Shown here in pieces: positions 46,787-57,126 of a stretch of 64,000 nt of DNA. The first letter of the stretch is position 1. Every line of letters begins with the position of its first letter. This DNA is from Candidatus Poribacteria bacterium (GTDB lineage Bacteria; Poribacteria; WGA-4E; JAJDTR01), in NCBI GenBank assembly GCA_965222225.1, contig CBDCTK010000002.1, positions 2,848,001 to 2,912,000 of the forward strand, in the 5' to 3' direction. Below the pieces are notes generated by a model. The model ran no database searches. It worked only from the letters and a program-made list of their open reading frames with translations, and was not told the DNA's origin. The position numbers were made by a program, and so were the translations under genes.

Positions 46787-47383
46787 ATGCGTTCTACGGC
46801 ATTAACGTTTACACTTGTTATCATAGTCTCAGCCTTACTCGCGAGTTGTGTGAGTACCGGCCCCAAGGTCCAATGGAGTAAAAATCTCGCCATCGAAGCC
46901 ACTAGTCGGGATCCCAATTCCAGGTTCCACGACGACAATCTATATACAGAGGGAGAAACCGGCCCCATTGTTGAGGATGAAAAGGATAAGGAATCGCAAT
47001 TGGAAGCCGACAAATACAGCGAAGCCGTCCTTGAGTGGCTTAACCCTCAGAAGATACAGCGAGTTGTCATCAAAGCCGACATCGGCGAGATGGAATATTT
47101 CAGGATTCAGTATTTGGACGATCAGAAGGAATGGCTGACCCTTCGCGAGGTCAAGGATCATGTCCGAGAAGTATACCAGACCAAGTTTAAGGAACCGGTG
47201 ATGTCTCGCAAGCTACGCCTGTTGGTTCCGCGCTCTTGGGAGTCGCGTCGCGTTGGTGGCGGGAAGCGAACACAGAGAAGTGATGGCGGAGCGCCTGTTC
47301 TGACTTATAAGAAGATTCGAGAAATTGAAGTTTACTACGCTCTGCCGCCAGAGGAGCCGGTAGCACCGGTAGCAAGCGAGTGA
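46787..47383 (+). CDS. Hypothetical lipoprotein, distant paralogue of the upstream gene
   Basis: SD AAGGAGG; LLASC lipobox; WSKNLAI, IQRVVIK, IREIEVY. Confidence 0.75.
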   Translation: MRSTALTFTLVIIVSALLASCVSTGPKVQWSKNLAIEATSRDPNSRFHDDNLYTEGETGPIVEDEKDKESQLEADKYSEAVLEWLNPQKIQRVVIKADIGEMEYFRIQYLDDQKEWLTLREVKDHVREVYQTKFKEPVMSRKLRLLVPRSWESRRVGGGKRTQRSDGGAPVLTYKKIREIEVYYALPPEEPVAPVASE

Positions 47384-47386
47384 GCG

Positions 47387-48619
47387 GTGCCAATGATATT
47401 CTCCGAGGAGACGAAGAGTTTAGTCCATCTCAGTATCATTCCCGGAGTGGGTTATCAAACCATACAACGTCTGTTGGTTGCCTTTGGCTCCGCGCAGAGA
47501 GCTTTAGACGCGACACTGGAAGAGCTAACTCAAGTTGAAGGGCTCTCCCCAAATGTTGGCCAACGGTTGATTCGTGGTAAATCCCGTGTTTTCGTAGACC
47601 AAGAATTGGAACTTATCGAGGCACACAATTGCCACTTGGTCGCCATCAATGACAGCGCCTACCCAATGCTCCTCAAGGAGATTGCCGATCCCCCACATTT
47701 GCTCTACGTGCGGGGTGAACTCGGTCAACCGGATGCGCCGAGCATAACTGTTGTCGGGACTCGAAGTCCGACGAACTACGGTAAGACAATTAGTCGCCAA
47801 TTAAGCCAACAACTCGCGGAAAACGGTGTTACCGTCATCAGCGGTTTTGCTAGAGGGATTGATACGTGCGCACACCAGGGGGCACTTCAGGCAAACGGGC
47901 GAACAATTGCTGTCCTCGGCAATGGCTTGAGTCAAATATACCCGGACGAAAACAAAGATCTCGCGGATGAAATCGTGAAATCCGGAGCGCTAATTTCGGA
48001 ATTTTCGATGTCGGTGCCGCCCTTTCCAAAGAACTTCCCGCGTCGCAACCGGTTGGTAAGCGGTATGAGTTCCGGAACGGTGGTGGTTGAAGCATCGGTT
48101 CGCAGCGGATCGTTGATTACCGCGCGCCACGCCGCGGAGCAGGGACGGGAAGTGTTCGCCGTACCAGGTCAAATTTTCTCCAATCAATCACGAGGCTCGC
48201 ACCAACTAATTAACCAAGGGGCGAAGTTGATAAACGCTATCGACGACATTTGGGAAGCCTTCCCGGATCGGCGTTTGACTCCAACCCTCACTTCTTCACT
48301 AGCTCAGCTCCCTTTAGATAGTAGCGCCGCTTCTCGGGGACGGGCGAACTCCAATCTCTTCGCCGAAGTGCTTGACCGAGATACATCTATCGGGAGTATG
48401 GGAACGCCTGCGGTAAAACCGACAATACAATCGACACCCGAGCTTAGCGCCGATGAACGAACTGTTCTTGAGGCAATTGATGTCCCATGTTCGCACATCG
48501 ACCAGATCGCTCGGACGGCATCGCTTCCTATGAACAAAGTCTCCAGTACGCTCGTTATGCTTGAACTCAAGGGAATCGTCCAGCAAATGCCGGGCAAGCA
48601 GTTTGCCCGACAATCGTAA
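47387..48619 (+). CDS. dprA: DNA-processing protein DprA
   Basis: VVGTR, SGFARGID, NFPRRNR, SGSLITA, C-terminal wHTH (LELKG). Confidence 0.96.
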   Translation: MPMIFSEETKSLVHLSIIPGVGYQTIQRLLVAFGSAQRALDATLEELTQVEGLSPNVGQRLIRGKSRVFVDQELELIEAHNCHLVAINDSAYPMLLKEIADPPHLLYVRGELGQPDAPSITVVGTRSPTNYGKTISRQLSQQLAENGVTVISGFARGIDTCAHQGALQANGRTIAVLGNGLSQIYPDENKDLADEIVKSGALISEFSMSVPPFPKNFPRRNRLVSGMSSGTVVVEASVRSGSLITARHAAEQGREVFAVPGQIFSNQSRGSHQLINQGAKLINAIDDIWEAFPDRRLTPTLTSSLAQLPLDSSAASRGRANSNLFAEVLDRDTSIGSMGTPAVKPTIQSTPELSADERTVLEAIDVPCSHIDQIARTASLPMNKVSSTLVMLELKGIVQQMPGKQFARQS

Positions 48620-48641
48620 TTGACAGACGGAGATTATAGAC

Positions 48642-49607
48642 GTGCAGTCAAAACCGCTGAGTTTTGAAAAACCGCTAAACGAACTCAATCAGCATATCGC
48701 GCAACTCAAAGGCTTTGCCGAAGCCAATCCCGAACTGGACCTAGCCCCGGGAATCGGAGCGCTTGAGAAAAACCTTGCCAACCTCACGAAGCAGGCGTTT
48801 CAAAAATTGACCCGCTGGGATAAGGTGTGGCTGGCGCGACACGAGCAGCGTCCGCAGGCGTCGACTTATATCCGAGCATTCTTCGATGATTCTATTGAGT
48901 TACGGGGGGATCGGTTACATGCGGATGACCGCGCGCTAATAGCCGGGTTGGCGCAGTTCGATGGACACCCCATCGCGTACTTGGCGCAGCAGAAGGGCAC
49001 AAATCTTGAAGAGCGGCAAGAAATGAATTTCGGGTACACGCACCCGGAGGGTTACCGCAAAGCACGGCGCGTGATGAAATTGGCGGAAAAGTTTGGTTTG
49101 CCTTTAATTTGCCTTGTCGATACCCCGGGCGCCCACTTCGATCGACGCTCGGAGGAATATGGGCAAGCCATGGCGATTGCCGAGAATCTCGCCGAGATGG
49201 CGTCGTTGCGCGTACCGATTATTGTTGTCTTGATTGGCGAAGGAGGCAGCGGGGGCGCGTTAGCCATTGCGGTTGGAGATCGAGTGCTTATGATGGAGCA
49301 CGCGGTGTACTGTGTCGCGCCTCCCGAGGCGTGCAGCGGCATTGTGTGGAAGGATCAGGGACAACACGCCCCCGAAGCGGCGGAAGGGCTCAAACCAACT
49401 GCGGACGATTTGTTGAAGCTGGGAATCATTGATGAAATCATCCCCGAGCCCCTCGGCGGAGCACACCGAGATGTCTCGCTTGCCACCAGACGGGTCAAGA
49501 TGGCTATTCGAAAACATCTCAACGCATTGCTGGAGATTGATGCGGAGCAACTCGTCCAAGATCGATATGAGCGGTATCGAAAGATTGGCGTCTATGGTGA
49601 GGAGTGA
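48642..49607 (+). CDS. accA: Acetyl-CoA carboxylase carboxyltransferase alpha
   Basis: PEGYRKA, VDTPGA, GEGGSGGALA, PEPLGGAHR. Confidence 0.97.
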   Translation: MQSKPLSFEKPLNELNQHIAQLKGFAEANPELDLAPGIGALEKNLANLTKQAFQKLTRWDKVWLARHEQRPQASTYIRAFFDDSIELRGDRLHADDRALIAGLAQFDGHPIAYLAQQKGTNLEERQEMNFGYTHPEGYRKARRVMKLAEKFGLPLICLVDTPGAHFDRRSEEYGQAMAIAENLAEMASLRVPIIVVLIGEGGSGGALAIAVGDRVLMMEHAVYCVAPPEACSGIVWKDQGQHAPEAAEGLKPTADDLLKLGIIDEIIPEPLGGAHRDVSLATRRVKMAIRKHLNALLEIDAEQLVQDRYERYRKIGVYGEE

Positions 49608-49712
49608 AGATTGTCTAAATTCAGCGTTAAAAGCCTGTCTGAAAATAGATCTGTTGTTGGGAACGCAAATCTGTGTTCCCTACTTGCCTGATTCATAGAA
49701 ATAGACAAAGAC

Positions 49713-49740
49713 GTAGAGAATAACGATCGTTATTCTCTAC
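49713..49740. repeat. Perfect 28-bp palindrome GTAGAGAATAACGATCGTTATTCTCTAC within a REP/MITE-like intergenic region
   Basis: Exact self-complementarity with GTAG/CTAC ends. Confidence 0.85.
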
Positions 49741-49911
49741 AACAGCCCTACATCATGTGGTTATCGTGGAAAACTACCATTTCTGCTTTTTGCGCAAGTC
49801 CTGTCTATTCCATCCTACCAATCTTCCCGCCTTCCATAAACGGGTTTTCCATCTAGATTAAACAGGCGCTAAAACAACTCGCTCGACTATGATGTTTCCC
49901 CTGCCTTCGCT

Positions 49912-51072
49912 TTACTCTACAATTTCGGTTACGACGCCCATCCCAATCCGCGCTCCCATCTTCTTGATTTCAAAGCGTGTGCAGACCTGAAGCGCCATCG
50001 GGACATCAAGGGCAATAGACACATGCGCGTGCTCCCCGGGGTTGACCATCGGAACATCGGGAGGCAGGTGAAGGTGTCCGGTGACATCAATTGCCCAAAG
50101 ATGGATTTCGGGTTTATCGTTGCCAACAAGCGGCACGTGCGTCTTGCACTCCTCCGGCGTCATGACATAGACCGCCGCTTCAAAGACGGTATGGGATTTT
50201 ATGCTTTTCGGTTCCGACACCACCTGTCCCGGCGATATCCAACCGGGCTCGGCATCGACCTGCACCTCGCCATCTCGCAATGCGATCAAGCGCGTCTTGA
50301 CCCGCTCTCCCTTCCCTACAATGTCAACGGCGTGTCCGACAGCGAGCCCGCCTTGGATAACTTCGCCGCGTAGCGTTGAGATTCCCTTCGGATCGTCAGT
50401 CACTTCACGAATCGGCATCAACATCGGCAAATCTATAGGTTTAATCGGTTGGGGCATGCACCTGCCCATCGCAAGAATCAGATCGACAATCGGCTTCCAG
50501 TGCTCAGAGTCTAGATTGTGTCCCTTATATCTCAGCGCTTTCAGGGCGTCGCCAATGATAATCGATGAATTCTCCTCCTCGTAACCGTAATCCGTGAGAA
50601 GTTCGCGAATCTCCACCGCGCAAATCTCAATCAACTCCGGATCCTCAACCCTTTCGGTTTGATTGAGGAATGTAATAATGACGGGAACGTGAGTTTGGCG
50701 TGCAAGCCGAATCTGCGTCTCGGACGATTCGGTGACTCCATCGACCGCGCTCACCACCCAAATTGCTCCTCGGACTTCTGGCGAACCGCTAACCAGCATC
50801 TTGATGGTATCCGCATGGCTTAGGCAGTCGATTTGCGAGTAGTGTCTGCCACTCGTTTCATAGTCGACCGCGCGGTAATCAAGTCCCACGCCCTCACTAA
50901 TTGGGTGGTGACTCGCCTGTTGCGATTCGATGTCCTCCGAGTCTACCGGAGTCGATCCAATTCGAGACACCACTTTTGTCATCGCCGCGGTAAGTGAGGT
51001 TTTGCCCGCCTGCGCTCCCCCAAGCGTGCAAACTATCAGTGCTTCATGCCGGTAACCTCTTTTGTCGTCCAT
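49912..51072 (-). CDS. Degenerate elongation factor Tu paralogue
   Basis: GKTSLTAAMTKV, YETSGRHYSQIDCLSHAD, EIRELLTDYGY, FEAAVYVM, PMALQV..RFEI...GARIGMGVVTEI align to EF-Tu domains 1-3. Confidence 0.85.
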   Translation of the reverse strand: MDDKRGYRHEALIVCTLGGAQAGKTSLTAAMTKVVSRIGSTPVDSEDIESQQASHHPISEGVGLDYRAVDYETSGRHYSQIDCLSHADTIKMLVSGSPEVRGAIWVVSAVDGVTESSETQIRLARQTHVPVIITFLNQTERVEDPELIEICAVEIRELLTDYGYEEENSSIIIGDALKALRYKGHNLDSEHWKPIVDLILAMGRCMPQPIKPIDLPMLMPIREVTDDPKGISTLRGEVIQGGLAVGHAVDIVGKGERVKTRLIALRDGEVQVDAEPGWISPGQVVSEPKSIKSHTVFEAAVYVMTPEECKTHVPLVGNDKPEIHLWAIDVTGHLHLPPDVPMVNPGEHAHVSIALDVPMALQVCTRFEIKKMGARIGMGVVTEIVE

Positions 51073-51261
51073 GATTTCACCCTTCTATCCAAGATATTAT
51101 CTATAGTACCATGTTATCATATCATGACAGAAGGAAACAACAGCGACGTGATGCCCTGTGGCTCACGACGGGTTGTTTTCCGTTGACACGTGCTGCAACG
51201 AAACCTATAATTGGCACGGCGTCCGCCATCCGAACCAAGCCCGCTAACTCTGGAGATGCAC

Positions 51262-52149
51262 ATGATTCTTACGATGAACAAACACCCGTTGGAGTTGAAC
51301 GGAAAATATCTGGGAATGCTGCGCGAAGCCAACGACCTTCTCAGCGACTCCGAGGCGCTAAATGCGCGACTCGAAGAGGACGGTTACCTGCTTATCCGCA
51401 CGCTTCACAACCGCAAGAAGGTCGAGACAGCCCGCCGATTTCTTCTTGAAAAGCTTGATGAGAATGGACAACTCGACACATCCTGTCCACTGTTACAGGG
51501 AGTTCCGGCGGTGGGCAAACGTGGCACATTCCTCGGAGGAAACAAGGCGGTGACCCACGATTCGGCTTTCCTAGACGTGGTCGAGTCTCCGGAGATTATG
51601 AGTTTCTGCGAAGGGTATTTCGACGCCCCCGTGATTACGTACGATTATAAGTGGCTGCGCGTGATTCAGCCGGGAGGATATTCGGGGGCGCACTACGACA
51701 TCGTTTATATGGGGCGCGGCACCAAGCGCGTTCTCACCTGCTGGACGCCGCTTGGCGATGTCCCCCTCGAAATGGGCCCGTTGATGCTTTTGGTCGGTTC
51801 GCATCGGTTTGAGGCGATTAGAAGAACCTACGCGGAAATGGATGTTGACAGGGATCACGTTACCGGTTCGTTTTCGTATGACCCGATTGAATTGGTCGAT
51901 CGCTATGGCGGAAGGTGGGGAACGAGTTCATTCGAGATGGGAGATGTGCTAATCTTCGGCATGTACACAATGCACGCTTCACTGGATAACACCACCAATC
52001 GCTTTCGGCTAAGCACCGACACTCGCTATCAACGCGCCGACGAACCGGTGGATGAACGTTGGATTGGTGATAACCCCATCGCTCATTATGCGTGGACAAA
52101 GGGCGAAACAGTACCGATGGAGGAGATGCGGAAACGGTGGGGAGTGTAA
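51262..52149 (+). CDS. PhyH-family dioxygenase
   Basis: AHYDIVYMGRGT, HASLDN, STDTRYQ. Confidence 0.9.
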   Translation: MILTMNKHPLELNGKYLGMLREANDLLSDSEALNARLEEDGYLLIRTLHNRKKVETARRFLLEKLDENGQLDTSCPLLQGVPAVGKRGTFLGGNKAVTHDSAFLDVVESPEIMSFCEGYFDAPVITYDYKWLRVIQPGGYSGAHYDIVYMGRGTKRVLTCWTPLGDVPLEMGPLMLLVGSHRFEAIRRTYAEMDVDRDHVTGSFSYDPIELVDRYGGRWGTSSFEMGDVLIFGMYTMHASLDNTTNRFRLSTDTRYQRADEPVDERWIGDNPIAHYAWTKGETVPMEEMRKRWGV

Positions 52150-52150
52150 A

Positions 52151-52187
52151 AAGGCTGGAAGATGGGAAGGGCGGAAGACGGGAAGAC
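52151..52187 (+). repeat. Octamer purine-rich tandem repeat (GGAAGNNN)
   Basis: ggctggaa gatgggaa gggcggaa gacgggaa; reverse-sense relatives near 13286 and 49805-49836. Confidence 0.55.
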
Positions 52188-52380
52188 AACTGGCGGTTTG
52201 GGAAATACCAATCCCGAAACTCAAAGCGGAGCCAAACCCACGAAGATTACGCGTACAAAAACGGGGTAAACGGTTGTTAACCGGTTTCGCCAAAAGACGG
52301 ATTCGATTGTTCCAAATTCGCTATTGAAATCAATAGGCTGAATACCTGCAAACTCCTGTTTCGTAGATTGTGTTGTGGGT

Positions 52381-53229
52381 TTAGTCACGCCTCAAGGCGG
52401 GGAGCACTTCACTGGTGGCGATCGCAACTAAAATAAGCACAGCCCCGCCAACCTGAATCCATGACAACCGATCGCCGGCTAACAGGTAGCCGAATAACAC
52501 GGCAAAAACCGGCTCCATCGTCAGGATAATAGCAGTTCTGGATGCAGACAAGCGTTGCTGAACGTATGTCTGTAGGGTGAAAGCGGCGGCGGAAGCGAGT
52601 ACGCCAGTGATAAGCAGAGCGAACCATACATGTACGGGTGGGAACGAGGGGCTTTCAAAGAGCAACCATGGTAGTCCGCATAGCAACGCGATTGCAACCA
52701 TCTGCGCCAGCGCCAAAGCGGTTGCATCGTGACGATGGGCGTAATGAGATAGCAGGGCGATGTGTAACCCAAAGCAAGCGGCGCAACCGAGGGTAAGTCC
52801 GTCCCCGATTCGTATCGATTCCGGGCTATCTCCCACGAGCAGGAGTGTTCCTACCAAACATGTTCCCAACGGTAACAGAAGAACGCGATCAATACGGACT
52901 CTAAACAGAATGTAGCTGGCAACTGGTGCGAAGACGACAAACAGCCCGGTAATGAGACCGGAGTTCGTTGGTGTTGTATGGCGTAGACCGTAGGTTTGAA
53001 GCAGGTAACCGCCCGCCAAGCATATACCGATTCCGGCACCGGGGACAAATGTCCCGCGCGTCAGCCGCTTGAATGAAAAAGGACCCAGACACAGCGAGGC
53101 TATAGTGAACCGAAGGGCAAGAAACCCAAGCACGGAGTAAGCCGTGACCGCGTCTCGAACCACGACAAACGTCCACCCCCAAACCACGGTAACGAGAAGG
53201 AGCGATCCCGACAGGAAAAAATTCCCCAT
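52381..53229 (-). CDS. DMT/EamA family transporter
   Basis: WGWTF, RFTIA, QTYGL, EPVFA; 10 TM segments. Confidence 0.93.
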   Translation of the reverse strand: MGNFFLSGSLLLVTVVWGWTFVVVRDAVTAYSVLGFLALRFTIASLCLGPFSFKRLTRGTFVPGAGIGICLAGGYLLQTYGLRHTTPTNSGLITGLFVVFAPVASYILFRVRIDRVLLLPLGTCLVGTLLLVGDSPESIRIGDGLTLGCAACFGLHIALLSHYAHRHDATALALAQMVAIALLCGLPWLLFESPSFPPVHVWFALLITGVLASAAAFTLQTYVQQRLSASRTAIILTMEPVFAVLFGYLLAGDRLSWIQVGGAVLILVAIATSEVLPALRRD

Positions 53230-53440
53230 TATTCAGTCACACATTACCTTTGTTCTTGTGTTCTTGTGGATTCGCGTTTGGAGGCTATCTGCCGAGAACG
53301 TGTTGCAATCTCGTTTGCGCGTTAGTGAGCATGTTTTATTGATACTTCAATACATCAGACAGTTTCGAGACTCCCGCTTTTATAGCAATTTTGGTAGGGG
53401 GATGTCAAACTTATAGTGAGGCCCCAGAGCCTTGACGTGC

Positions 53441-53469
53441 TTGCATCTACTTGGAGATGTGGATATAAT
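53441..53469 (+). promoter_or_regulatory. Sigma70 promoter
   Basis: TTGCAT-N17-TATAAT. Confidence 0.65.
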
Positions 53470-53686
53470 ATCTGAGTGATGTTGCGTTTCAAGTAGACGA
53501 GCACTACACCAGCTTTAAGGGGGAGAAAAGTGGGTTACTTCCTTTCCCGATCTTGGCGTGGAAGTTACTTCCGAATTGGCTAACCAAGATATAGGTTTTT
53601 CCTGTATGTTTTTATGAGATGAAGGTATGAGCTAGATTAATGGGAAATGGTATTACCATCAATTACAATCCGCAAGGAGAGATTCA

Positions 53687-54904
53687 TTGACATATCAAGT
53701 AGAACGAAAGTCTTTAAGAAGTTGGAACAAGATTGACAGATTCCTTCTGCATTCTGTTGGTTGTTTAATCTTGGTCGCGGCAATCTTGACACTGTGTAGC
53801 GGGTGTGAGGAGGTTCAACGTGTCCTCACATCGTTGCCGGATGGAGACGAAGATGCCATCAAAATCGGCTTTATTTATAGTAGCGCGAACCGGAGCCACA
53901 GCCTGAACGGCGCGGAACTGGCGGAACGAAAACTGAATGCAGAGGGCGGCGTGCACGGCACCTCAATCAAAGTAATAGCGCGCGGCAACATAACCGGCAA
54001 TGAGCATGCCGCGGAGATAGCTGAAGCATTGATTACCGAGGAGGGAGTATCAGCCATCATTGGTCCCAATCTATCGCGTTATGCCGTGCCCATCGGGGAG
54101 GTTGCCCAACAGCACGGAATACCGATGGTGACCACCACTGCCACCAACCCAACCGTCACTGCTGCGGGCGATTTCGTGTTTATGTCGGCGTTCACGGACG
54201 ACTTTCAGGGAAAGGTCATGGCTCAGTTCGCCTCGCAAGACCTAAAAGCAAAGACAGCGGCAGCCCTCACACGCAGAGAATCGCTTTATTCGGAGGGATT
54301 ATCCCAAACCTTTATTGACAACTTTGCAGCTTTCGGCGGCGAAGTCGTGCATGCGGAATTTTACGCGAGGGGAGACACCGATTTTACGACGCAATTGACG
54401 GCAATCGCTGAATCGGCGCCGGATGTCGTTTTTCTGCCGGGGTTCTCCGCCGAAATCCCGATAGTAGTTGAACAGGCGCGAACGCTCGGCATTACGGGAA
54501 TCCTCCTCGGCGGCGACAGTTGGGACAGTGCGGCGTTGATTGCCCAAAGTGGAGAGATTCTTGAGGGAAGTTATTTTTCTACGTTCTTCTGGGCGGACGT
54601 TCCACCGGGGTCGTTGAGCAAGGACGCTCACCAGTTTATCGATACCTATACCTTAATCTTTGGCGTCCCGCCCGGTGGCGGGGCTGCGCTCGGATATGAT
54701 GCCCTTAGGCTGACGGTTCAGGCGATGCGTCGAGCGCCCGAATTGACACCTACGGAGATCCGCGACCAGATTGCAGCCACCAAGAACTACAGCGGCGCGA
54801 CATTTATCTCCGGCTACGATCGGAACCGGCACGCGGCGAAAAGCGCTTTCATCAACCGCATTATTAACGGCGAAGCGAAGTTCCATAAACTGATTCAGCC
54901 GTAA
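53687..54904 (+). CDS. LivJ/LivK-like ABC substrate-binding lipoprotein (paralogue 1)
   Basis: LCSGC, IPMVTTTATNPTVT..GDFVF, DDFQG, GGDSWD, ALGYDA. Confidence 0.9.
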   Translation: MTYQVERKSLRSWNKIDRFLLHSVGCLILVAAILTLCSGCEEVQRVLTSLPDGDEDAIKIGFIYSSANRSHSLNGAELAERKLNAEGGVHGTSIKVIARGNITGNEHAAEIAEALITEEGVSAIIGPNLSRYAVPIGEVAQQHGIPMVTTTATNPTVTAAGDFVFMSAFTDDFQGKVMAQFASQDLKAKTAAALTRRESLYSEGLSQTFIDNFAAFGGEVVHAEFYARGDTDFTTQLTAIAESAPDVVFLPGFSAEIPIVVEQARTLGITGILLGGDSWDSAALIAQSGEILEGSYFSTFFWADVPPGSLSKDAHQFIDTYTLIFGVPPGGGAALGYDALRLTVQAMRRAPELTPTEIRDQIAATKNYSGATFISGYDRNRHAAKSAFINRIINGEAKFHKLIQP

Positions 54905-55007
54905 TTACAATCCCGATTATTATTGTTTGAGGAATACTCTGTTAATTCTTGAGTTTTGAACAATCCTGTTTGACTTCATCATTCATTCGGAAGGAGAAAT
55001 AATCGAC

Positions 55008-55844
55008 GTGAGTGAGCAAAAAAACGATGCGACATATACGATGGGACGCACCAAAGAGGAGACAGATCGGCTAATACAGCAGTCAGGACTGTACGACGAC
55101 GTGACGAAACGTTTTCTCGGGGAAGCCGGTCTGTTCAGCGGGATGAAAGTCCTTGATATTGGGAGCGGCGCCGGAGATGTTGCGATGGCTGCGGCTGAAC
55201 TCGTTGGCGATGACGGGGAAGTTATCGGCGTGGATATGAACGCCGAGATTCTCGAAACTGCCCGAGCACGGGCGCAGGGCGCGGGATTCGCAAACATCCA
55301 GTTCCTGGCAGGTGACTCGCGAACGCTAGACCTTCCCAACGACTTCGACGCCCTTATCGGACGTCTCGTCCTGATGTATATGGCGGATCCTGCAGATGCC
55401 TTGAGAGAGCTTAAAACGCGCCTGCGCCCCGGGGCTATCGTTGCTTTTCAGGAGGTTGATTTCACATCCATCTCGGCGTTTTATGCAGATCATACCCCCT
55501 TGATGAACAACCTAGCCTCGTGGGCTGTTGAGGTCTTTAAGCGTTCAGGGGCGCATACCGGAATGGGTTTGGACCTCTACGGTACTTTTATGGATGCCGG
55601 TTTGCCGGAACCTGCTCTACAATATACAGCGCCGATGGGCGGCCCGGAGGCGTGGGGCGGTTACCAATTCGTCGCCAACAGTTTCCGCAGTATTCTCCCG
55701 CTTATGGAAGCCTACGGGATTGTGACCGCGGAAGAGGTCGATATAGAGACACTTCCCCAGCGACTTCGAGGCGAGGTTGTTTCGTCGAAGCGCCCGATTC
55801 TCTTGCCGCCGCATGTGACGGCTTGGGCACAACTTCCATCGTAG
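55008..55844 (+). CDS. Class I SAM-dependent methyltransferase
   Basis: VLDIGSGAGD, FDALIGRLVL. Confidence 0.93.
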   Translation: MSEQKNDATYTMGRTKEETDRLIQQSGLYDDVTKRFLGEAGLFSGMKVLDIGSGAGDVAMAAAELVGDDGEVIGVDMNAEILETARARAQGAGFANIQFLAGDSRTLDLPNDFDALIGRLVLMYMADPADALRELKTRLRPGAIVAFQEVDFTSISAFYADHTPLMNNLASWAVEVFKRSGAHTGMGLDLYGTFMDAGLPEPALQYTAPMGGPEAWGGYQFVANSFRSILPLMEAYGIVTAEEVDIETLPQRLRGEVVSSKRPILLPPHVTAWAQLPS

Positions 55845-55905
55845 AATGAATGGTTAATTTACGGATTGAAACGACATGAAAAAATTGAGGGAGAAGGAAC
55901 TCTAA

Positions 55906-57126
55906 ATGACAAATCAACGTATTCGACTGAACGAACACGGATTCATCGGCTGGTTTTGGATACCGCTATTACTTTTGGGTTTCGTGTTTGCAGGGTGTGA
56001 CCAACTCCAACAGTTGCTCGCTCCATTGCTGAGCGAAGATGATGAAACGATTAAAATCGGCTTTATCTATACAACACCGAACCGAATCAACAGCCGTTAC
56101 GGCGCGGAATTGGCGACGAACGAGTTGAACGAAGAGGGAGGAGTACGGGGTACGCCGATAGAGCTCATCGCTCACGGCATACCAACACAGCGCCTTATCA
56201 GCGAGAACATCAGCGATACCGAGTACGTCGCGGGAATAGCAGAAGAGTTGATTACCGGGGAAGGAGTAACGGCAATCGCAGGGCCCAACCGTTCGACCCA
56301 TGCCGTTATCGTTGGGGAGATTGCTCAACGCCACGGGATACCGATGATAACCACAGGTGCGACCAACCCGTCCGTTACCGCCGCCGGTGACTTCGTATTC
56401 ATGGCAGCTTTCACCGACGACTTTCAGGGCAAAGTGATGGCTCAGTTTGCCGTCCAAGATTTGGAAGCCAAATTCGCAGCGGTTCTCACGCATGCGGGAG
56501 ATGTCTATTCGGAGGGCTTATCAAAGACCTTCATCGCCAACTTTACCGCTTATGGCGGCGAGGTCGTGGCTGAACAGTTTTACATGGCGGGCGACACCGA
56601 TTTCACCGCCCAGTTAACCGCAATTGCCGAAGCTGTGCCGGACGTAATCTTTAGCACCGGTTTCATCCCCGAAGTCCCGCTGGCGGTTCGGCAGGCGAGG
56701 GATGAGATTGGCATTACAGCAACCTTCCTCGGCGGCGATAGTTGGGATAACCCGGCGTTGCTTCCCGAAGGCGGGGCGGCGGTCGACGGGAGTTTCTTTA
56801 GTAGTCCCTTCTCTGTCAAAGCTGATCCGGGCGACTTGGGTGAAGATGCCCATCAATTTGTTAGCGCCTACACCGGGATGTTTAATGAAGTGCCCGATGG
56901 CGGGGCTGCGCTGGGATATGACGCCATACGGCTGCTGGTTCAGGCAATGCGCCGAGCGTCCGACTTGACGCCAACAGCGATTCGCGACCAGATTGCAGCG
57001 ACCGACAACTACAGCGGAGCAACCCTCATCCTGGGCTATGATAAGAACCGCCACACCGCCAAGAGTGCGGCAATCAACCGTGTCGTTGATGGCGAAGTTC
57101 AGTTCTACAAACTAATCCAGCCGTAG
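55906..57126 (+). CDS. LivJ/LivK-like ABC substrate-binding lipoprotein (paralogue 2)
   Basis: VFAGC; collinear with and highly similar to paralogue 1. Confidence 0.9.
   Translation: MTNQRIRLNEHGFIGWFWIPLLLLGFVFAGCDQLQQLLAPLLSEDDETIKIGFIYTTPNRINSRYGAELATNELNEEGGVRGTPIELIAHGIPTQRLISENISDTEYVAGIAEELITGEGVTAIAGPNRSTHAVIVGEIAQRHGIPMITTGATNPSVTAAGDFVFMAAFTDDFQGKVMAQFAVQDLEAKFAAVLTHAGDVYSEGLSKTFIANFTAYGGEVVAEQFYMAGDTDFTAQLTAIAEAVPDVIFSTGFIPEVPLAVRQARDEIGITATFLGGDSWDNPALLPEGGAAVDGSFFSSPFSVKADPGDLGEDAHQFVSAYTGMFNEVPDGGAALGYDAIRLLVQAMRRASDLTPTAIRDQIAATDNYSGATLILGYDKNRHTAKSAAINRVVDGEVQFYKLIQP

Follow-up and report, generated by a model that had tools for sequence, protein, structure and literature searches.

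We analysed a 64,000-nt stretch of the genome of a Candidatus Poribacteria bacterium (assembly GCA_965222225.1, contig CBDCTK010000002.1, positions 2,848,001 to 2,912,000 of the forward strand; "the window" below means this whole stretch). Its minus strand encodes, at 49912..51072, a paralogue of elongation factor Tu (EF-Tu) that a first-pass annotation of the sequence had flagged as a candidate pseudo-GTPase, that is, a G-domain protein without the residues for nucleotide binding or hydrolysis. EF-Tu is among the most conserved and most studied proteins; in bacteria, gene conversion normally holds its duplicates identical, or else they stay working factors. In the paralogue described here, the GTP switch and the aminoacyl-tRNA (aa-tRNA) interface both appear to be lost, yet purifying selection maintains the gene throughout an entire order of an uncultivated phylum, one best known from marine sponges. 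The gene and the features on which this reading turns are the following, with residue numbers of the paralogue unless stated otherwise.

49912..51072, minus strand: coding sequence of the EF-Tu-derived paralogue (P0001, 386 aa), with its ATG at 51072 and the stop, ending at 49912, included; the open reading frame is intact
50998..51021, minus strand: G1 motif or P-loop, GGAQAGKT (residues 18-25); Walker A intact, canonical His19, Asp21 and His22 replaced
50881..50895, minus strand: switch-I remnant, EGVGL (residues 60-64); the Thr that contacts Mg and the gamma-phosphate is Gly
50815..50829, minus strand: G3 motif and start of switch II, DCLSH (residues 82-86); Asp and His kept, the Gly of DxxG replaced by Ser
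50653..50664, minus strand: G4 motif, NQTE (residues 137-140), in place of NKxD, as read from the translation
50590..50640, minus strand: helix D (residues 145-161 of the model), the EF-Ts/bL12 contact face in EF-Tu; unusually well retained
50542..50553, minus strand: G5 motif, GDAL (residues 174-177); the canonical Ser is a family-specific Asp
50248..50253, minus strand: junction of the domain-2 deletion (codons 274-275); by alignment, the 14 missing residues take away the GDN hairpin of canonical EF-Tu and, with it, pocket residue N285 (Thermus numbering)
49960..49962, minus strand: Lys371 at the T-stem contact E390 (Thermus numbering), an invariant charge reversal

The collinearity with all three EF-Tu domains that had been claimed for this protein is borne out by a sequence search of the PDB, which pairs residues 14-386 with positions 7-391 of 5w75_A (E 7e-69). 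Identity to canonical EF-Tu is about 35%. NCBIfam EF-Tu models cover residues 12-386 at 245-256 bits against cut-offs of 449-522, with bacterial EF-Tu models scoring best (255 bits) and SelB reaching only 32 bits. The equivalog cut-off of TIGR00485, 522.4 bits, is not reached: the paralogue scores 245.3 bits, or 238.3 in a genome scan in which the true tuf product of the same genome scores 725.6. With Pfam, the paralogue matches GTP_EFTU (2.5e-21) and GTP_EFTU_D3 (1.8e-14), and the domain-2 model finds no match. Domain 2 is indeed shortened, as had been noted: the alignment has a 14-residue gap over the canonical 'GRAGDNVGVLIRGV' stretch. At this same site some members from one family of the order (f2) carry insertions, giving proteins of 394-407 aa (L049:7911-9218, plus strand; L042:7998-9254, minus strand) and splitting the match to the paralogue into residues 1-270 and 267-386; the length of this loop is hypervariable across the family.

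An AlphaFold2 model of the paralogue (predicted local distance difference test score, pLDDT, 92; predicted template modelling score, pTM, 0.90) retains the three-domain EF-Tu fold. All matches listed by Foldseek are EF-Tu, with template modelling (TM) scores of 0.83-0.89 to solved EF-Tu structures. The model is open and GDP-like, with TMq values of 0.83-0.89 to GDP-state structures versus 0.56 for 2c77 and 0.49 for 1ha3. As a control, we modelled the canonical EF-Tu of the same genome (pLDDT 87.8, pTM 0.78), which is open as well (0.93-0.96 to GDP-state versus 0.57-0.61 to GTP-analogue structures), and the notion that the open model is the sign of a locked "off" shape was rejected on this ground. 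Five defining features of canonical EF-Tu were examined in the paralogue; the three-domain architecture is present and the other four are missing.

In P-loop GTPases, the switch-I Thr and the Gly of DxxG are the gamma-phosphate sensors, coupling the gamma-phosphate to conformation. We tallied these and the other motif residues in 119 full-length representatives of the family (two fragments, P0062 and P0063, were dropped) and, separately, in 144 distinct paralogue sequences and 28 canonical copies from the phylum, with residues located by sequence context; E. coli residue numbers are given for some positions. In the window's protein, the motifs GGAQAGKT, EGVGL, DCLSH (with its His), NQTE and GDAL all read in translation as the first-pass annotation had them. 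Its description of G1 as degenerate holds in that the motif is changed from the canonical one, but GGAQAGKT still fits the Walker A pattern GxxxxGK[ST], and G...GKT is found in 118/119 representatives. The P-loop Asp (E. coli D21), by comparison, is kept in only 7/144 sequences. This Asp binds a monovalent cation in translational GTPases, according to the available part of PMC4342817.

Both gamma-phosphate sensors are missing family-wide: the switch-I Thr occurs in 0/119 and 0/144 sequences, and the Gly of DxxG in 2/119. The remaining G3 residues are largely kept (Asp in 118/119, His in 96/119). At G4, the Asn is invariant (119/119), Lys is found in 46/119, and the position of the guanine-specificity Asp holds Asp in 10, Glu in 55, Asn in 26 and Gly in 21 of the 119. 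The G5 Ser is absent (0/119), with Asp at its position in 116/119 and the following Ala in 111/119. As judged from these alignments, the residues for GTP sensing, for ribosome-triggered hydrolysis with the usual cofactors, for guanine recognition and, as described below, for canonical aa-tRNA binding are absent, and the P-loop Lys and Thr, the Mg-linked G3 Asp and the G4 Asn are the ones that are kept.

Eight residues of EF-Tu that contact aa-tRNA were set out by Schrader and Uhlenbeck (Thermus numbering): H67, E226, D227, T239 and N285 in the amino-acid pocket, and Q341, T350 and E390 at the T-stem (available part of PMC3239215). All eight are present in 28/28 canonical copies of the phylum. 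In the paralogues, H67, E226, D227, T239, Q341 and E390 are each found in 0/144, N285 is deleted in 144/144, and T350 is present in 66/144, so that seven of the eight published contacts are replaced or deleted in every one of the 144 sequences. Position E390 is Lys in 144/144 paralogues and Glu in 28/28 canonical copies. A scan of 387 windows along the alignment, measuring identity of the paralogue to the canonical consensus (0.32 overall), gave the same picture. The parts most like EF-Tu are the P-loop with helix A (0.77), the core strands at 0.55-0.64 and helix D, which with 0.49 ranks 33rd of the 387. Least like it are the deleted GDN hairpin, switch I at 0.05, the domain-2 pocket strands at 0.07 and, in domain 3, the T-stem strip at 0.14. 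In EF-Tu, helix D is the contact face for EF-Ts and ribosomal protein bL12 (available part of PMC5574714). Its exposed acidic residues are nearly invariant in the paralogues (E146 in 143/144, E154 in 144/144, E157 as Glu or Asp in 143/144), and R156 is found in 124/144.

A search of 5.8 billion protein clusters yielded more than 120 full-length relatives with 52-99% identity, several of them named Candidatus Poribacteria and annotated as "hypothetical", "GTP-binding protein" or "elongation factor Tu"; all 13 of the 13 loci with the paralogue that lie in named genomes are from Candidatus Poribacteria. We then considered 101 sampled genomes from the phylum, 94 of which belong to the four families of the window's order (f1-f4), and scored a match at E <= 1e-109 as being at the level of the paralogue. 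Such a match is present in 92/94 of the in-order genomes, at 46-92% identity, accompanied in nearly every case by a canonical tuf at 35-39%. In the remaining two genomes, G080 (91% complete) and G091 (86% complete), the canonical tuf alone was seen. None of the paralogue matches listed contains an internal stop codon.

Selection was assessed from pairwise ratios of nonsynonymous to synonymous rates (dN/dS) by the method of Nei and Gojobori (NG86). For 15 pairs from the window's genus, with dS of 0.38-0.73, paralogue dN/dS averages 0.098 (range 0.079-0.123), compared to 0.019 for canonical tuf in the same pairs; 43 further close paralogue pairs give 0.057-0.180. Per-domain values of 0.06-0.12 indicate constraint on all three domains. 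In trees, the paralogues form one clade (36/36 sequences with a support of 100 in the Shimodaira-Hasegawa-like approximate likelihood ratio test, SH-aLRT; 20/20 with support 100/100 in a second tree), borne on a long stem of 0.65-0.75 changes per site. The groupings within it (f4, f1+f2, f3) are those of the canonical tuf tree. A single clade whose branching mirrors that of tuf points to one origin followed by vertical descent. The family may have arisen by duplication of the phylum's tuf or by transfer; a tree that unites the paralogues with the tuf copies of the phylum in one clade is not rejected by an approximately unbiased (AU) test (p = 0.132), and long branches are involved.

Three outcomes that had been named in advance as speaking against a neofunctionalised protein did not occur: orthologues are not absent (92/94 in-order genomes carry one), dN/dS is not near 1 (it is about 0.10), and no working EF-Tu-like subfamily already described takes in the paralogues, actEF-Tu being the sole one named in the available part of PMC4342817.

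Outside the window's order, a less degenerate form of the protein came to light. A scan of 1.84 billion representatives returned only two clusters above the canonical level, P0026 (the representative of the family itself, 69%) and P0122 (42%, 294 bits). We widened the sample to 17 genomes outside the order. Two of them carry a copy at this intermediate level: G104 of family f11 (43% identity, 285 bits), in which a canonical tuf is also present, and G101 of family f9. Ten of the 17 (seven of f5, one of f10, G002 and G004) have matches at the canonical level only. For families f5, f7, f8 and f10, the sample thus gives no support to the idea that all Poribacteria carry the paralogue. The other five (three of f6, G108 and G006) have no EF-Tu-like match at E <= 1e-20 and are uninformative, because the canonical tuf was missed there too. 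As a separate observation, the three f6 genomes (G045, G103 and G106) lack such a match with the paralogue protein as the query, and G045, which is 95% complete, has none with the EF-Tu family model either; the sequence may be missing or their tuf may be very divergent.

Searching with P0122, we found 14 intermediate clusters, three of them named Candidatus Poribacteria, followed by a sharp drop to EF-Tus of other phyla at <=44%. The intermediates are sister to the window's family (support 100/99) and about 40% identical to the window's protein. Residues common to both groups include a Cys in strand 1, YETSGKHY, HWKPI, PKSI, VGND..W and the Lys at E390 (14/15 intermediates). Like the window's family, the intermediates have lost the switch-I Thr (0/14, with Pro instead), the Gly of DxxG (0/15), the P-loop Asp (0/12) and H67 (0/15). 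They have kept the Asp of NKxD (14/15), the Ser-Ala of G5 (15/15), the P-loop His (12/12) and the catalytic His (15/15), and on the tRNA side the domain-2 hairpin, E226 (11/15), D227 (14/15), Q341 (15/15) and T350 (13/15). The intermediates lack the switch residues yet keep NKxD, G5 and much of the pocket, and canonical EF-Tu gives the outgroup state. Read in this way, the alignment shows that the switch and hydrolysis residues disappeared first; the amino-acid pocket and the specificity for guanine followed along the stem that leads to the window's order. This milder sister form, which occurs in two further families of the class, is new here, and the two-step series it makes is the most valuable addition of this analysis. 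It offers two natural proteins for direct comparison, one with guanine-binding motifs and no switch, the other with the P-loop only.

How does the paralogue relate to known systems? With canonical EF-Tu (TIGR00485) it shares three collinear domains, the fold, the GKT of the P-loop, the G3 Asp, the G4 Asn, the core strands and helix D. It differs in lacking the switch-I Thr, the Gly of DxxG, the P-loop Asp, the Asp of NKxD, seven of eight aa-tRNA contacts and 14 residues of domain 2, and in lying outside a str operon. The nearest published analogue in kind is aSelBL, likewise a lineage-restricted translational GTPase of the EF1/SelB group with a degenerate G domain, under selection and with its function unsolved in the available part of its description (PMC3037878). 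According to that part, aSelBL is archaeal and SelB-derived, and its divergent members have P-loop deletions yet keep the conservation pattern for aa-tRNA and ribosome binding. The Poribacteria paralogue is the converse: bacterial, EF-Tu-derived, with an intact P-loop and with the aa-tRNA interface apparently destroyed.

A second comparison is with actEF-Tu/EF-Tu3 of the Actinomycetales. The available part of Atkinson 2015 names no other distinct subfamily of EF-Tu-like proteins in bacteria and describes the actEF-Tu members as condition-specific, antibiotic-resistant translation factors (PMC4342817). Both are divergent second tuf genes that have escaped gene conversion with the main copy. However, the Poribacteria paralogue is without the G-motif and aa-tRNA residues that the job of a translation factor would call for, and it comes from a different taxon. 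A third comparison is with EF-Tu(GDP) bound together with the hibernation factor Balon, which the available part of PMC10901736 describes as a GTP-independent ribosome ligand held by bL12 (at the helix-D face), 16S h5 and domain III. The likeness lies in helix D, which is well kept in the paralogue, and the differences are that domain-III residues which Balon shares with tRNA binding are changed and that the genome has no Balon-type gene by three Pfam models. Those models, eRF1_2, eRF1_3 and baeRF_family2, detected neither Balon nor aeRF1 genes, other baeRF families not having been searched: eRF1_2 gave no match, the eRF1_3 match (19.1 bits, below the cut-off) falls in a frame that encodes an S49 peptidase, and the baeRF_family2 match (20.1 bits) is also below its cut-off. 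Unlike YchF/Ola1, whose Obg-family architecture has helical and TGS domains, only EF-Tu domains were found in the paralogue. Literature searches of open-access papers and bioRxiv returned no paper describing the Poribacteria paralogue family; a preprint on a sponge holobiont proteome mentions EF-Tu generically only.

On sequence and model, the paralogue combines a kept G-domain fold, family-wide losses in the switch and catalytic residues, and maintenance by selection; it is a probable pseudo-GTPase derived from a translational GTPase, and would be a rare bacterial example. With confidence a little better than even, we regard it as a functional, vertically inherited, EF-Tu-derived pseudo-GTPase of the Poribacteria. 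The core of the first-pass annotation, a neofunctionalised and non-GTP-cycling protein, is supported by its conservation, vertical descent and purifying selection together with the family-wide loss of both gamma-phosphate sensors and of the guanine-specificity Asp. By these residues, the protein would very probably be unable to serve as a GTP-driven aa-tRNA carrier, acting as a one-state binding protein. A protein that has lost its switch and tRNA residues and yet is so carefully preserved must do a new job.

What that job might be can be sketched with decreasing confidence. There is perhaps an even chance that a nucleotide or phosphate ligand is held statically, as a structural cofactor without guanine specificity, since there is hardly any variation at the P-loop Lys and Thr, the G3 Asp, the G4 Asn or the new G5 Asp, whereas the residues around these positions drift. 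More tentatively, and in our view less likely than this, the paralogue might still dock to the translation machinery, through EF-Ts or the bL12 stalk, and present a new surface to a partner, which would make it a GTP-independent regulator or adaptor of translation. This guess derives from the good retention of helix D and from the tRNA-facing surfaces of domains 2 and 3, which look remodelled and then fixed again, as in the invariant Lys at E390. In its fullest form the idea becomes unlikely: a dedicated GTP-independent regulator, a one-state EF-Tu sitting on the ribosomal stalk or EF-Ts via helix D, with its domain 2/3 face holding a new partner, and throttling or parking ribosomes in slow-growing Poribacteria. 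If this were true, the regulator would parallel EF-Tu(GDP) on Balon-hibernated ribosomes but be hard-wired in a separate gene, and the two-step series would be a natural record of a GTPase turning into a pseudo-GTPase. More generally, if the paralogue still touches the translation machinery, it would point to an added, lineage-specific level at which sponge-associated bacteria control translation; if it does not, it shows other uses of the EF-Tu fold.

A further line of evidence comes from RNA libraries. The paralogue sequence is present in 11 RNA-labelled runs from three studies (metatranscriptome assemblies), some of them labelled "sponge metagenome". In the four runs examined, contigs at least 95% alike cover the open reading frame, one spanning 49914-51071, and contigs of three runs (two studies) end at 51071-51106, within the divergent promoter gap. 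This pattern fits transcription of the paralogue.

Several points weigh against the picture of a functional pseudo-GTPase that may still contact translation components. Nucleotide binding, the loss of hydrolysis and the loss of tRNA binding are all read from residues. The catalytic His is retained in 115/144 sequences, which would be unexpected were hydrolysis wholly irrelevant, and one subclade does not have the same G4 and G5 variants as another, so that there is perhaps no single ligand. The argument from helix D is weak, as part of the conservation of the helix may be structural, and His118, which we take to be an EF-Ts-contacting residue of EF-Tu, is kept in just 58/144. The open AlphaFold conformation is uninformative, since the canonical control folds the same way, and the RNA-library contigs do not prove transcription, because such libraries can contain DNA. 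No dedicated partner came to light: there is no second EF-Ts or bL12 in the genome, which has one of each, and 31/31 genomes have one EF-Ts match. Finally, no neighbour of the gene is conserved across the order (11 loci and the window, plus the intermediate loci), synteny being kept only within family-level clades. A complex prediction for EF-Ts (18-row alignment) with the paralogue (109 rows) scored 0.01 against a mark of 0.32, which speaks neither for nor against binding.

Among the explanations that compete with a pseudo-GTPase given a new cellular job, two are the easiest to set aside. A decaying duplicate, a pseudogene in the making, might be suspected from the many canonical motifs lost and from their variation between subclades. 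It is refuted, and we give it practically no credence: the frame is intact in every copy listed, 92/94 genomes carry the gene even though some members share just 46% identity with the window's protein, each of the three domains has a dN/dS of about 0.1, and there are new residues that have turned invariant. A working specialised elongation factor, like Streptomyces EF-Tu3 or nematode mitochondrial EF-Tu2, would account for a complete EF-Tu homologue with three domains in a genome that has a canonical copy as well, and such factors exist (available part of PMC4342817). The loss of G2, G3 and G4 residues and of seven of the eight aa-tRNA contacts, along with a score of 245 bits versus a cut-off of 522, effectively excludes it. 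An active NTPase of changed specificity is a third candidate, one that would use, for example, ATP as YchF/Ola1 does and cycle non-canonically. In YchF/Ola1, NxxE replaces NKxD and is linked to altered specificity (available part of PMC8779481), and the window's NQTE has the NxxE pattern; the P-loop, the G3 Asp and, in most sequences, the catalytic His are also kept. However, NxxE is found in just 62/144 sequences, other subclades having Asn, Gly or Lys there, and with the switch-I Thr and the Gly of DxxG absent across the family and the P-loop Asp in 7/144, we find such an enzyme quite improbable.

Two further alternatives, both unlikely in our judgement, assume a binding role of another kind. 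The paralogue could be a decoy or sink for EF-Tu-targeting toxins, phage factors or elfamycin-type antibiotics, shielding the real EF-Tu in a dense sponge microbiome. The overall EF-Tu shape is kept in the model, complexes of EF-Tu with the toxins Tse6 and CdiA are among its structural neighbours, so EF-Tu is a frequent target, and the gene was found in the "sponge metagenome" runs. Yet E. coli T382, presumably the Thr phosphorylated by Doc, is kept in 4/144, A375, which we take to be a kirromycin site, is Glu in 134/144, and switch I is unrecognisable; with these sites changed, several known EF-Tu binders would not recognise the protein. No PADLOC or PHROGs model matches it, and the neighbours that were scanned include neither defence nor mobile genes. 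Strong constraint on all domains, with remodelled surfaces that have turned invariant, fits a specific new partner better than mimicry. The other alternative is binding of RNA by a new, GTP-independent mode, the target being uncharged or unusual tRNA or some other RNA. Duplicates in the EF1 family usually specialise on tRNAs or tRNA mimics (available part of PMC4342817). In the paralogue, the Lys at E390 is invariant (144/144) and Lys89 (E. coli numbering) is kept in 143/144. The intermediate's retention of Q341, T350 and most of the pocket suggests that tRNA binding may have outlasted the switch. Lys89 and the Arg at E. coli 288 are, we assume, contacts to the 5'-phosphate, and the latter is kept in 0/144. 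The window's form, moreover, has none of H67, E226, D227, T239 and Q341 and has N285 deleted throughout, the protein is acidic (pI 5.2), and an Rfam search of 47000-54000 found no structured RNA near or adjoining the gene. The first-pass suggestion of a tRNA-binding regulator is, on the same counts, unsupported for the canonical mode of binding, seven of the eight contacts being gone in 144/144.

Regulatory signals around the gene are modest; those on its own strand are as follows.

51078..51085, minus strand: putative Shine-Dalgarno-like GAAGGGTG, 5 nt before the ATG, by sequence reading
51096..51125, minus strand: promoter-like ATGATA-18-GATAAT with 9/12 matches, weak; the scan found 2 versus 1.4 expected by chance
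49712..49741, minus strand: terminator-like hairpin with a 13-pair stem and a T-rich tail, about 170 nt past the stop and between the paralogue and the converging accA

The intact frame that had been noted holds, its reading direction being that of the minus strand, and the Shine-Dalgarno-like GAAGGGTG is read, as had been noted, upstream of the ATG. The base at 51080, within this element, is missing from the RNA-library contigs of two runs (X1 and X4), probably reflecting strain variation. The terminator scan found 2 versus 1.6 expected, and the hairpin is a consensus match only; neither the promoter nor the terminator scan of the paralogue region gave counts above chance.

The gene also stands alone, as described at first: accA downstream converges on it, a PhyH-family gene upstream diverges from it, and its neighbours (accA, dprA, the PhyH-family gene and an EamA transporter) include no str operon and no tRNA-tufB-type cluster. 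The canonical tuf of the genome, a single copy, lies 1.85 Mb away and adjoins EF-G. GC content and GC content at third codon positions (GC3) of the paralogue agree with those of the neighbouring genes. Neighbours shared at the level of clades are accA in f1, an M20 peptidase and an isochorismatase-family gene in genus g5 of f2, hisA and a cytidylyltransferase in f3, and NamZ and DUF3500 in f4; the PhyH-family neighbour is common only within the window's genus. The intermediates have two kinds of surroundings, one with anthranilate synthase, a TIM-barrel gene and an M20 peptidase, the other with an AAA ATPase and PAP2. The M20 peptidase was considered as a neighbour shared by f2 and the intermediates and rejected, the two not being orthologous (30% identity over 125 aa).

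Some further observations concern other genes. The sole EF-Ts of the genome is short (200 aa) and lies in an rpsB-tsf-frr cluster (L101:1486-2088, minus strand; G000 contig 2, about 495.7 kb), where the adjoining rpsB encodes a 428-aa product that is extended at its C terminus by a long, repetitive stretch, acidic and rich in lysine. EF-Tu is also matched, at 117.7 bits, by a frame of about 659 aa (L003; G000 contig 2, 1591722-1592783, plus strand), and similar genes of about 650 aa occur in outgroup genomes; the frame resembles SelB, in which case these bacteria would use selenocysteine. Within the window, a perfect sigma-70 consensus (TTGACA-17-TATAAT, 12/12) at 51183-51211 on the plus strand ends exactly at the TTG that opens the PhyH-family reading frame (312 aa, 51211-52149, plus strand). 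The true start of that gene probably lies further downstream, and from this promoter the gene would be transcribed in the direction leading away from the EF-Tu paralogue. At 53687-57126, also on the plus strand, a class-I S-adenosylmethionine (SAM) methyltransferase is enclosed by a pair of paralogous solute-binding proteins of the Peripla_BP_6 type (405 and 406 aa), and this trio is also present in one genome of the window's genus.

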